DNA of 18,745 nt from the IMG/VR virus record IMGVR_UViG_2563366948_000001, positions 1 to 18,745 of that record; one strand, 5' to 3'. This DNA comes from a virus (lineage: Duplodnaviria > Heunggongvirae > Uroviricota > Caudoviricetes). The notes below the pieces were generated by a model that saw nothing but the letters and a program-made list of their open reading frames with translations, was not told the origin of the DNA and ran no database searches. The translations under genes were made by a program, and so were the position numbers. Positions 10,644 to 18,745 of the stretch are shown here, one piece after another. The first letter of the stretch is position 1; each line of letters begins with the position of its first letter.

Positions 10644-11726
10644 TTAGAACTGGTAAACCATACCTACAGCAACGATATCATCGGTAGCAACGCCAGATGC
10701 TTTCGTGAAATCGCTCTTATCAATCAGGTTGATTTTGTAATCAACAAAAGTGGACATATTTTTGTTGAAGTAATAGGTTGCACCTACATCAATATATTCA
10801 ACCAGGTCCTGATCACCCCACGCACCCAAGTCTTTTCCTTTAGATTGCAGGTAAGCAACGGACGGACGCAGACCGAAGTCGAACTGATATTGTGCAACTA
10901 CTTCGAAGTTTTGTGCTTTGTTGGCAATATGGTTATTACCAAAAACAGTCATGTTCTGGGTTTCAGAATAGGTGGTAGCCAGATAGATGTTGTTCGCATC
11001 ATATTTCAGACCAGCTGCCCATACTTCAGCATTTTGACCAGATGCATTCAGGCTGTTGTTACCGTAGATAACCTGATTATTAGTGCGGTCAGATTTAGCA
11101 TAGGTTGCACCTACACCGAATCCTTCATACTCATAAGTAGTGGAGAAACCGAAACCATCACCATTAGCTTCAGTTACGTCAGTGCGGTCATTTTTACCCT
11201 GATACTGAGCAGCAAAGTTCAGACCATCAACCAGACCAAAGAAGTCGTTGTTACGATAAGTTGCAACACCAGTGGTGCGACCAGTCATGAACACATCTGT
11301 TTGGGTCCAGGTATCGCCACCGAATTCTGGCAGAACGTCAGTCCACGCACCGATGTCGTATGCTACACCGTAGTTACGGCCGTAATCGATTGAGCCGTAG
11401 TCACCGAATTTCAGGCCTGCAAATGCAAGACGGGTTTTGTCTTTGGAGGAACCTTGAGATTCAGCGCGGTTGCCTTTGAATTCATATTCCCACTGACCGA
11501 AACCAGTCAGTTGATCGTTGATTTGGGTTTCACCTTTGAAGCCAAGACGGGCATAAGTAGTATCACCATCATCTGCATCATTAGAGGAGAAGTAGTGCTT
11601 AGCATTAACTTTCCCGTACAGATCCAGCTTGTTACTGTCTTTATTATAAATTTCAGCTGCCTGAGCAGACATCGCCATCAGTACTGATGCAGCTACAGCA
11701 GAAATTGCCACTGTTAATTTTTTCAT
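10644..11726 (-). CDS. nmpC: Phage-encoded general porin (OmpC/OmpF family; NmpC/Lc-like), apparently intact
   Basis: 360 aa with signal peptide [23 protein letters not shown], porin N-terminus [16 protein letters not shown] and C-terminal ...VYQF; sits between Q and the lysis genes on the opposite strand. Confidence 0.9.
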
Positions 11727-14460: not shown

Positions 14461-15915
14461 ATGGAAGTCAACAAAAAGCAGCTGGCTGACATTTTCGGTG
14501 CGAGTATCCGTACCATTCAGAACTGGCAGGAACAGGGAATGCCCGTTCTGCGAGGCGGTGGCAAGGGTAATGAGGTGCTTTATGACTCTGCCGCCGTTAT
14601 AAAATGGTATGCCGAAAGGGATGCTGAAATTGAGAACGAAAAGCTGCGCCGGGAGGTTGAAGAACTGCGCCAGGCCAGCGAGGCAGATCTCCAGCCAGGG
14701 ACTATTGAGTACGAACGCCATCGACTTACGCGTGCGCAGGCCGACGCACAGGAACTGAAGAATGCCAGAGACTCAGCTGAAGTGGTGGAAACCGCATTCT
14801 GTACTTTCGTGCTGTCGCGGATCGCAGGTGAAATTGCCAGTATTCTCGACGGGATCCCCCTGTCGGTGCAGCGGCGTTTTCCGGAACTGGAAAACCGACA
14901 TGTTGATTTCCTGAAACGGGATATCATCAAAGCCATGAACAAAGCAGCCGCGCTGGATGAACTGATAACCGAATCCCATCTCGGCAAGGAGCTGCTGGAA
15001 AAAGTCGAGCTGACGGAGGATAACGCCAGCAAACTGGAGGAGTTTTCGAAAGAGTGGCAGGACGCTAACGATAAGTGGAATGCCATGTGGGGCGTCAAAA
15101 TTGAGCAGACCAAAGACGGCAAACATTATGTCGCGGGTATTGGCCTCAGCATGGAGGACACGGAAGAAGGCAAGCTGAGCCAGTTTCTGGTTGCCGCTAA
15201 CCGTATCGCGTTTATTGACCCGGCAAACGGGAATGAAACGCCGATGTTTGTGGCGCAGGGCAATCAGATATTTATGAACGACGTGTTCCTGAAGCGCCTG
15301 ACGGCCCCGACCATTACCAGTGGTGGAAATCCACCGGCATTTTCCCTGACATCAGACGGAAAGCTGACCGCTAAAAATGCGGATATCAGTGGCAGTGTGA
15401 ATGCGAACGCCGGGACGCTCAACAATGTCACGGTAAATGAAAACTGTACGATTAAGGGCATGCTGGAGGCGACTCAGGTCAGAGGTGACTTCGTTAAAGC
15501 TGTATCCAAATCATTCCCGAAACAGGCTGGTACGTGGGGTAATACGGAAACACCAAACGGGACGGTTACAGTCACCATCAGCGATGATCATAACTTTGAC
15601 CGTCAAATCATTATTCCGCCCATTATCTTTAACGGAATAGCGTATAGCGATCCGGGAAGTGGTAATAACCCGGGAGGTACAAGATACACGGGTTATGGTT
15701 TTGAAGTTCGCAAAAACGGTGTATTAATCGCATCCAGAGAAACTAAAGGGGCCATTCCCGGTAGCTACAGTGCGGTTATTGATATGCCGAGTGGCAGGGG
15801 AAGCGTCACTCTGGAGTTTAAGGTTTTCCATAAAGGCAATCAGCGGGCAGGTAATATCACCGACTGTACGGTGATTGTGACCAAAAAAGCCGCTTCCGGC
15901 ATCAGTATTCGTTGA
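14461..15915 (+). CDS. In-frame fusion: terminase small subunit Nu1 (residues 1-169) joined to the C-terminal ~315 residues of tail-tip protein J
   Basis: N-terminus [34 protein letters not shown]...AALDELI is lambda Nu1; from [21 protein letters not shown]... onward it matches the lambda J C-terminal region; single 484-aa ORF. Confidence 0.85.
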
Positions 15916-15984: not shown

Positions 15985-16353
15985 ATGCGTAAACTTTATG
16001 CCGCCATTTTTTCCGCAGCCATTTGTCTGGCCGTATCCGGTGCGCCTGCATGGGCATCTGAACATCAGTCCACGCTGAGCGCGGGGTATCTTCATGCCTC
16101 GACGAACGTTCCCGGCAGCGATGATCTGAACGGGATTAACGTGAAATACCGTTATGAGTTTACGGACACACTGGGGCTGGTGACGTCATTCAGCTATGCA
16201 GGAGACAAGAATCGCCAGCTGACCCGTTACAGCGATATCCGCTGGCATGAAGATTCCGTTCGTAACCGCTGGTTCAGCGTAATGGCGGGGCCGTCTGTGC
16301 GCGTGAATGAATGGTTCAGCGCGTATGCGATGGCGGGTACCTTCTGCCCGTAA
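15985..16353 (+). pseudogene. lom: lom (Ail/Lom-family outer-membrane protein), truncated after codon 118
   Basis: MRKLYAAIFSAAICLAVSGAPAWASEHQSTLSAGYLHAS... matches lambda Lom up to ...WFSAYAMAG, then TFCP-stop; lambda Lom is ~206 aa. Confidence 0.8.
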
Positions 16354-17539
16354 GGTGAATGGTAAGGCGCTTTCAGCGGATATAACACTGACGCCGAAAG
16401 ATATTGGTACGCTTAACTCAACAACAATGTCATTCAGCGGTGGTGCTGGTTGGTTCAAATTAGCAACGGTAACCATGCCACAGGCGAGTTCTGTTGTTTC
16501 AATTACGTTGATTGGTGGCGCGGGATTTAACGTGGGGTCACCTCAACAGGCAGGTATATCTGAACTTGTTTTGCGTGCAGGTAATGGTAATCCGAAGGGG
16601 ATTACTGGTGCTTTATGGCAGCGCACATCGACAGGGTTTACAAATTTTGCCTGGGTCAATACATCTGGTGATACTTACGATATTTACGTTGCAATCGGAA
16701 ATTATGCGACTGGTGTAAATATTCAATGGGATTATACCAGTAATGCCAGCGTGACGATTCATACGTCACCAGCATATTCTGCTAATAAGCCGGAAGGGTT
16801 AACGGACGGTACAGTTTATTCACTCTATACGCCATCAGAGCAGTTTTATCCGCCTGGCGCACCAATCCCGTGGCCATCAGATACCGTTCCGTCTGGCTAT
16901 GCCCTGATGCAAGGGCAGACTTTTGACAAATCTGCATACCCGAAACTTGCAGCCGCTTATCCGTCAGGCGTGATCCCTGATATGCGTGGCTGGACGATTA
17001 AGGGCAAACCCGCCAGTGGTCGTGCCGTATTGTCTCAGGAACAGGACGGCATTAAATCGCACACCCACAGCGCCAGCGCATCCAGTACGGATTTGGGGAC
17101 GAAAAACACATCGTCGTTTGATTACGGAACCAAATCCACGAATAACACCGGGGCGCATACCCATAGTATTAGCGGGACTGCAAATAGTGCCGGTGCGCAC
17201 CAACACAAGAGTTCCGGTGCATTTGGTGGCACGAACACGAGCATTTTCCCTAATGGTTATACCGCGATTTCAAATCTAAGCGCGGGGATTATGAGCACAA
17301 CAAGCGGTAGTGGCCAGACTCGTAATGCAGGGAAGACATCATCAGATGGTGCTCATACCCACTCGCTGTCCGGCACTGCTGCAAGCGCAGGCGCACACGC
17401 ACATACTGTCGGTATTGGTGCTCATACGCACTCCGTTGCGATTGGCTCACATGGACACACCATCACCGTTAACGCTGCTGGTAACGCGGAAAACACCGTC
17501 AAAAACATCGCATTTAACTATATTGTGAGGCTTGCATAA
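16339..17539 (+). pseudogene. stf: Side tail fibre Stf, C-terminal ~400 codons only
   Basis: Open frame continuous with track ORF 16307-17539; contains tail-fibre-type His-rich repeats (GAHTHS, GAHQHK, GAHAHT, GSHGHT); no credible start; abuts truncated lom. Confidence 0.75.
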
Positions 17540-18120
17540 TGGCATTCAGAATGAGTGAACAAGCACGGACCATAAAAATTTATAATCTGCTGGCCGGAAC
17601 TAATGAATTTATTGGTGAAGGTGACGCATATATTCCGCCTCATACAGGTCTGCCAGCAAACAGTACCGATATTGCACCGCCAGATATTCCGGCTGGCTTC
17701 GTGGCTGTTTTCAACAGTGATGAGTCATCGTGGCATCTCGTTGAAGATCATCGGGGTAAAACGGTTTATGACGTGGCTTCCGGCGATGCGTTATTTATTT
17801 CTGAACTCGGTCCGTTACCGGAAAATGTTACCTGGTTATCGCCGGGAGGGGAGTTTCAGAAGTGGAACGGCACAGCCTGGGTGAAGGATACGGAAGCAGA
17901 AAAACTGTTCCGGATCCGGGAGGCGGAAGAAACAAAAAACAGCCTGATGCAGGTAGCCAGTGAGCATATAGCGCCGCTTCAGGATGCTGTGGATCTGGAA
18001 ATCGCAACGGAGGAAGAAACCTTGTTGCTGGAAGCCTGGAAAAAGTATCGGGTGTTGCTGAACCGTGTTGATACATCAACTGCACCGGATATTGAATGGC
18101 CAGTAGCACCTATAGGGTAA
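17539..18120 (+). CDS. tfa: Tail fibre assembly protein Tfa
   Basis: 193 aa [54 protein letters not shown]..., recognised as lambda Tfa; start overlaps stf stop. Confidence 0.9.
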
Positions 18121-18200
18121 ATTCGTAATGATTACCTAAATACGTTATTCTTTTGTTAAAAAAGTGATTTTGCTATAGGTAGGGAGTATGTTCTTGGATT

Positions 18201-18237
18201 AAGAATAAAAAATCGCCATGAAAGAGCTTCATGGCGA
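18201..18237 (-). terminator. Intrinsic terminator facing tfa (3' end of a leftward transcription unit now interrupted by IS1)
   Basis: 10-bp stem TCGCCATGAA / TTCATGGCGA with loop AGAGC (18213-18237), followed on the minus strand by TTTTTTATTCTT. Confidence 0.5.
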
Positions 18238-18256
18238 GTACGGTAATGACTCCAAC

Positions 18257-18634
18257 TTATTGATAGTGTTTTATGTTCAGATAATGCCCGATGACTTTGT
18301 CATGCAGCTCCACCGATTTTGAGAACGACAGCGACTTCCGTCCCAGCCGTGCCAGGTGCTGCCTCAGATTCAGGTTATGCCGCTCAATTCGCTGCGTATA
18401 TCGCTTGCTGATTACGTGCAGCTTTCCCTTCAGGCGGGATTCATACAGCGGCCAGCCATCCGTCATCCATATCACCACGTCAAAGGGTGACAGCAGGCTC
18501 ATAAGACGCCCCAGCGTCGCCATAGTGCGTTCACCGAATACGTGCGCAACAACCGTCTTCCGGAGACTGTCATACGCGTAAAACAGCCAGCGCTGGCGCG
18601 ATTTAGCCCCGACATAGCCCCACTGTTCGTCCAT
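18257..18634 (-). CDS. insB: IS1 transposase InsB segment (made in vivo as InsAB' by -1 frameshift)
   Basis: 125-aa [51 protein letters not shown]..., recognised as IS1 InsB. Confidence 0.9.
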
Positions 18635-18678
18635 TTCCGCGCAGACGATGACGTCACTGCCCGGCTGTATGCGCGAGG

Positions 18679-18745
18679 TTACCGACTGCGGCCTGAGTTT
18701 TTTAAGTGACGTAAAATCGTGTTGAGGCCAACGCCCATAATGCGG
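18679..18745 (-). CDS. insA: IS1 InsA, 3' portion only (5' end beyond window)
   Basis: Minus-strand reading ...[18 protein letters not shown]-stop with stop at 18679-18681; contains the slippery A6C site. Confidence 0.8.

Follow-up and report, generated by a model that had tools for sequence, protein, structure and literature searches.

How should one read a stretch of viral DNA that ends inside an insertion sequence just behind the last late gene of a prophage: Has the element taken the place of the genes that follow, or has it simply landed next to them? The window considered here, that is, the whole stretch of 18,745 nucleotides that was analysed (Caudoviricetes, IMG/VR record IMGVR_UViG_2563366948_000001), is cut within an IS1 element and therefore shows one of its ends. 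The initial annotation proposed that this IS1 takes the place of the b-region genes distal to tfa or interrupts them, and named as the alternative an IS-mediated deletion, which would leave unrelated DNA and no target duplication at the far end. Deciding between these views requires the missing end of the element and an uninterrupted version of the same region.

The prophage and its IS1 element

The element hosting IS1 is a lambdoid prophage of E. coli that has become defective; it occupies the lambda attachment site, with ybhC on one side and ybhB-bioA on the other. The lambda att core, GCTTTTTTATACTAA, is found without mismatch at position 1331 of the window, together with the P' arm of lambda, and a copy of this core with one mismatch lies ahead of ybhB, followed by bioA, at position 15654 of a comparison scaffold, hereafter L003 (NCBI KE137010.1, assembly GCA_000408345.1). 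This scaffold, which was reached via a 410-aa tail-fibre ORF, shows no mismatch to the window over all 12,439 overlapping bases and extends past its end; it places IS1 inside the prophage, ~3.7 kb from attR. The gene order in the window runs from ybhC, att and int to Q, a porin gene, S-R-Rz, bor, a nu1'-'J fusion ORF, a truncated lom, the 3' part of stf and tfa. The porin gene, of the OmpC/NmpC type (360 aa, window 10644-11726, minus strand), separates Q from the lysis genes, an arrangement shared with DLP12-like prophages.

The features at the right end of the window are the following:

17539..18120, plus strand: tfa, tail fibre assembly gene, 193 aa, the last late gene before the b region (Pfam Caudo_TAP_N and Caudo_TAP; relatives annotated as tail fiber assembly protein)
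18121..18241, no strand: start of a conserved, AT-rich (~30% GC), non-coding block after tfa, which continues beyond IS1 outside the window (defined by composition)
18242..18745, minus strand: IS1 (IS1A-like), 504 of ~768 bp, cut by the window end (terminal repeat, Pfam, identity to an annotated copy)
18242..18264, minus strand: right inverted repeat (IRR) of IS1, with the insB stop codon at 18257-18259 inside it (sequence read and repeat search)
18697..18705, minus strand: programmed -1 frameshift motif of IS1, TTAAAAAAC, leading from insA to insB' (read directly; relatives annotated 'programmed frameshift')

That the terminal repeat of IS1 begins at 18242, as first proposed, is borne out by several lines of evidence. 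A terminal-repeat search (~23 bp, GGTRATG... type) gives an exact IRR match at 18242-18264, and GGTAATGACTCCAACTTATTGATAGTG, the sequence that opens the element, occurs a single time in the window (18242-18268), 0 occurrences being expected from shuffles. The stretch 18242-18745 aligns over 510 bp, with 99.6% identity, to a copy in E. coli BS74R-D (L001) that is annotated as IS1A family, and the minus-strand ORF of the element carries the Pfam domain DDE_Tnp_IS1 (PF03400). The IRR is the end that faces tfa, 122 nt from the tfa stop, and since the insB stop lies inside it and the frameshift motif is on the minus strand, the transposase reads leftward, towards tfa. The tfa coding sequence wholly contains an Rfam match, 'IS009' (RF02111, 221 bits), at 17882-18080 on the plus strand; here this sRNA model thus matches a segment of a tail-fibre-assembly gene and not an intergenic RNA.

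Far end of the element, target duplication and empty site

The window stops 2 nt short of a run of 10 N that forms a scaffold gap inside IS1 in L003. On either side of this gap the scaffold holds 506 bp and 68 bp of the element, corresponding to IS1 positions ~768-263 and 68-1, so that ~194 bp are missing and insA falls mostly in the gap; full-length copies of 768 bp are present in the loci of relatives. Past the gap come the last 68 bp, the left inverted repeat (IRL) end of IS1, finishing in CAGTAAGTTGGTAGCATCACC, then GGCGAGTAC and then ATAAACGTACAAAATG. The IRL occupies L003 12497-12519, was matched to the IS1A consensus in a search that allowed up to 4 substitutions, and differs by one base from that of the IS1A copy in L001 (GGTGATGCTACC vs GGTGATGCTGCC). 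The 9-mer directly after the IRL is the one that precedes the IRR in the window, so the check suggested at the outset, namely finding the other IS1 end together with an 8-9 bp duplication, yields a 9-bp duplication on both sides of the element:

18233..18241, no strand: left copy of the 9-bp target-site duplication, GGCGAGTAC (the same 9-mer directly follows the IRL at L003 12520-12528 and is single in empty sites)

At the left junction CATGGCGAGTAC is joined to GGTAATGAC, and at the right junction in L003 GCATCACC is followed by GGCGAGTAC and ATAAACG. In the corresponding empty sites CATGGCGAGTAC runs directly into ATAAACGTAC (i.e. CATGGCGAGTAC and then ATAAACGTACAAAATG), with the 9-mer present once; such sites are found in BS74R-D (L001), phage ev099 (L006) and three other E. 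coli loci, while two further empty loci carry one substitution within the 9-mer. The flanks of L003 on both sides of IS1 are 99-100% identical to the uninterrupted block. A matching 9-bp duplication combined with a colinear flank indicates simple IS1 transposition, with nothing replaced or deleted.

The gap within the element leaves room for one other reading, in which two IS1 copies flank extra DNA hidden behind the 10 N, either as a composite transposon or through duplication of IS1; an IS1 composite transposon would also produce a 9-bp duplication at its outer ends. However, the two sequenced parts have the orientation and register of one element (~768-263 and 68-1, with ~194 bp missing), breaks within multicopy IS1 are routine in draft assemblies, and nothing hints at cargo, which makes this arrangement very improbable. 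Marginally less probable still is an IS1-mediated adjacent deletion or rearrangement, in which IS1 would mark a breakpoint and the b-region genes distal to tfa would have been lost. IS1 is known to cause such events, and BS74R-D offers an example, an IS1 of the same block that lacks a duplication and stands in place of 881 bp. Yet the far end in L003 bears the matching 9-bp duplication, and its flank is base for base that of the empty site, continuing into the whole ev099-type b region as far as attR; the deletion alternative raised initially thus gives way to a simple insertion. A chimeric join induced by repeats, with no IS1 truly at the site, might be considered since 2 nt lie between the window end and a contig break in a repeat that is present in many copies, but it can practically be dismissed, given that the left junction is reproduced with 100% identity in an independent ENA metagenome contig (L004) and that a chimera would not create a matching duplication of a 9-mer that is single-copy in empty sites.

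The right junction is known from one assembly, GCA_000408345.1, in which the two IS1 ends are joined by scaffolding across the 10 N. The left junction in one piece is absent from every complete E. coli genome in our collection, and its exact 35-nt pattern has no match in a one-genome-per-species set. This distribution implies that the insertion is recent and private to its lineage. Two good-looking BLAST matches to the junction were rejected, as the IS1 they involve is an unrelated one, located upstream of a tail-fibre gene.

Taken together, we consider it highly probable that a single IS1A-like element entered, by simple transposition, the non-coding, AT-rich block behind tfa in a defective lambdoid prophage resembling ev099 and mEp332.

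The b region, the hairpin and a small open reading frame

If IS1 was simply inserted, what surrounds it? Beyond the element L003 continues with ~520 bp at ~30% GC, a 3' fragment of tRNA-Ser, an AraC-family regulator, IS remnants and the att core. The order tfa, AT-rich block, tRNA fragment, AraC regulator and IS remnants is identical in phages ev099 and mEp332, int and xis coming after the IS remnants in ev099; hence the b region of the prophage is complete apart from IS1. No ORF of more than 70 codons is found on either strand in the 1.4 kb beyond IS1 (L003 12520-13920), and no ea47-like gene is annotated in the corresponding region of ev099 or mEp332. The notion that IS1 replaces or interrupts b-region genes is consequently not supported by L003, where the element has its 9-bp duplication and an intact flank and sits in non-coding spacer. 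Nor does the hairpin next to IS1 end an equivalent of ea47, as had been supposed, for the b region is of the ev099/mEp332 type and lacks any ORF above 70 codons in those 1.4 kb.

Two components of this region deserve mention in their own right. The tRNA-Ser-like 3' fragment (L003 13260-13330) lies in the b region of a prophage integrated at att-lambda, and the same DNA occurs in ev099 and mEp332; it overlaps the tRNA-Ser annotated in phage SerU-LTIIb, is found in FCI1 at a prophage end near zinT, and has the look of a mosaic remnant of a different integration module. It was the sole hit beyond IS1 in searches with Rfam (permissive threshold) and ARAGORN, neither of which detected a known sRNA or a complete tRNA in this part. 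The AraC-family regulator (L003 13913-14656, plus strand) is close to the IS remnants, has counterparts in ev099 and mEp332, and is probably a moron regulator.

The hairpin itself lies between tfa and IS1:

18203..18237, minus strand: intrinsic-terminator-like element for leftward transcription, with the stem-loop at 18213-18237 and the T-run at 18203-18212 (folding and conservation)

Read on the minus strand, it consists of TCGCCATGAAGCUCUUUCAUGGCGA followed by UUUUUUAUUC, and its stem of 10-11 bp is separated from IS1 by exactly 4 nt (GTAC, 18238-18241). Its structure is that of a rho-independent terminator, a stable GC-containing stem-loop directly before a U-tract. The predicted folding energy is -16.2 kcal/mol (z = -4.45), a stability that none of 200 shuffled sequences reaches. 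A scan for terminator-like sites returns 3 in 2.2 kb against 2.8 in shuffles and is no proof by itself; the hairpin gains its credibility from being both stable and conserved, since it is kept in 8 of 8 related loci, one of which is only ~80% identical overall. Compensatory changes were not seen among these 8 loci, and a distant-mode DNA search with the block comprising the ORF described below and the terminator recovered no more divergent copies. The earlier description of IS1 as lying downstream of tfa in the lambda gene order, 4 nt from a strong convergent, minus-strand terminator hairpin, therefore stands in the form of a terminator-like hairpin, which would act as a leftward intrinsic terminator.

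Which gene could such a terminator serve? In the empty site, the minus strand carries a small ORF that lies ~150 nt upstream of the hairpin:

L003 12673-12774, minus strand, outside the window (~window 18979-19080): 33-codon YncL-like ORF, MKIQSKLIVLLNIIIAFILFELLAQKFGLSTLF, unannotated

A promoter-like sequence, TTGACT-17-TATTGT, ends 35 nt before its ATG, and no clear Shine-Dalgarno sequence is evident. Against the NCBIfam equivalog model for YncL (NF000537) the ORF scores 25 bits (E = 1.3e-5), which is below the curated cut-off of 35 bits; its BLASTP identity to the YncL of K-12 is 39% over 28 residues (E = 2e-7). By sequence it resembles YncL, but we do not file it as an equivalog. The frame is intact in 9 of the 9 loci examined, the most divergent of which has 17 nucleotide differences in the ORF that result in only five amino-acid changes and leave the frame undisturbed. 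Gene finders practically never call this ORF, and it has two unnamed members in the databases. PHROGs contains no match for either the 33-aa or the 55-aa ORF, nor does NCBIfam for the latter, and the distant-mode search revealed no link at the DNA level between the ORF-plus-terminator block and the chromosomal yncL locus.

The leftward gene served by the hairpin is most likely this 33-codon ORF, which we predict to be expressed. We tentatively go one step further and regard it as possible that the AT-rich block is a conserved, unannotated moron of lambdoid phages, rather than junk spacer, encoding a 33-aa YncL-like membrane peptide with its own promoter, a ~150-nt 3' UTR and the hairpin at 18213-18237 as its terminator. 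Should this be true, the IS1 insertion has uncoupled the YncL-like gene from its terminator in this strain.

The sequence of events that most probably produced the present arrangement starts with a staggered 9-bp cut at GGCGAGTAC (18233-18241), which overlaps the last 5 nt of the leftward terminator-like hairpin. Repair then duplicated the 9-mer on both sides, with no DNA lost and no annotated gene broken. The hairpin arm ends in the 5 nt with which the target 9-mer begins and, because the duplication thereby restores the stem (5 of its 9 nt being stem bases), the complete stem survives on the tfa side, while the far side of IS1 retains only GGCGA of it. The full hairpin thus remains 4 nt outside the IRR, and the YncL-like unit that it probably ended is now 777 bp further away, behind IS1. 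Leftward transcripts of the 33-codon ORF would then run into the IRL end of IS1, an element that is classically polar. Transposase transcripts leaving the IRR, on the other hand, would meet the hairpin at once, and such a stop to read-out would shield tfa from antisense transcription.

The block as an IS1 target and comparison with known systems

The AT-rich block has a GC content of 30%, compared with 48% for the window, and is widespread. Its 631 bp after tfa occur in 830 of the 5426 complete E. coli genomes (~15%), at 939 places that are always unannotated, and they mark the right-hand ends of prophages integrated at different sites, namely att-lambda, the prophage end near zinT, the sit operon and ydfJ. 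The functional phages ev099, mEp332 and PhiR70_1 carry the block as well. IS1 has entered it more than once, the other copies being located as follows:

L001 5753-6520: IS1 copy without duplication
L002 5200-5967: IS1 copy with duplication
L015 2867-3634: IS1 copy with duplication
L016 3101-3868: IS1 copy with duplication

In FCI1 an independent and divergent IS1 (92% identity) sits 43 bp to the left of the site in the window, with the duplication GTTCTTGGA; independent insertions in CFSAN064035 and LT2-3 have the 9-bp duplications GAGTGCCCG and AAAGGTTAA, respectively. The copy in BS74R-D (L001) is the one that lacks a duplication, and the 881 bp it replaces are present in L003 and ev099. Hence both outcomes envisaged by the initial annotation, insertion and adjacent deletion, do occur in this block, in different strains. 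The block core is disrupted in at most ~1.4% of genomes, and such IS1 events are therefore sporadic. IS1 prefers AT-rich DNA according to classical literature, and the low GC content of the block together with its repeated IS1 events fits this preference; our search of open-access literature on IS1 target choice found nothing usable. The block after tfa is, in other words, a repeated target of IS1 across strains.

Could IS elements nevertheless account for the other deletions of this prophage, as had also been suggested? The nu1'-'J gene, an ORF of 484 aa (window 14461-15915, plus strand) combining the Pfam domains Phage_Nu1, Phage_Tail_Tip and Ig_GpJ_C, is an in-frame fusion resulting from the deletion of essentially all head and tail genes. 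A further deletion of ~1.9 kb with respect to FCI1 has fused lom, now truncated, to the 3' part of stf (15985-16353, 16307-17539), and at its junction (~16325-16338) the BLAST segments overlap by 14 nt, which suggests a short-homology deletion rather than IS action. No IS sequence was found at the nu1'-'J and lom'-'stf junctions. The idea of IS-driven deletions accordingly finds no support in the window, though in the relative BS74R-D the 881-bp deletion of this block does adjoin an IS1. The right arm of the prophage is intact except for a single clean IS1 insertion, and IS1 is not the cause of decay here.

Compared with simple insertions of IS1 (IS1A/IS1B type) in the chromosomes and prophages of E. 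coli and Shigella, the element has the same terminal repeats, DDE_Tnp_IS1 transposase, insA/insB' arrangement with A6C frameshift, 9-bp duplication and AT-rich target. No difference of substance separates them, the one base change in the IRL and the unsequenced middle of the element in the draft notwithstanding, and the insertion is an ordinary case of a thoroughly known mechanism. The only fresh point, a minor lead for work on small proteins, is the unannotated phage-borne YncL-like ORF. YncL of E. coli K-12 (b4598) is a small membrane protein of 31 aa involved in the stress response, to which the 33-codon ORF is similar in length and in having a single hydrophobic helix; in contrast to YncL, it is carried by phages, does not occupy the chromosomal yncL locus and remains below the family cut-off. 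With respect to the b region of lambda (ea47-ea31-ea59), the region described here has the same place in the gene order (tfa, b region, att) and the same convergent leftward transcription towards the tail-fibre genes, but it contains no ORFs of the size of ea47, ea31 or ea59. It belongs instead to the type of ev099 and mEp332, formed by an AT-rich block with the 33-codon YncL-like ORF, a tRNA-Ser fragment, an AraC-family regulator, in a position like that of appY at the end of DLP12, and IS remnants.
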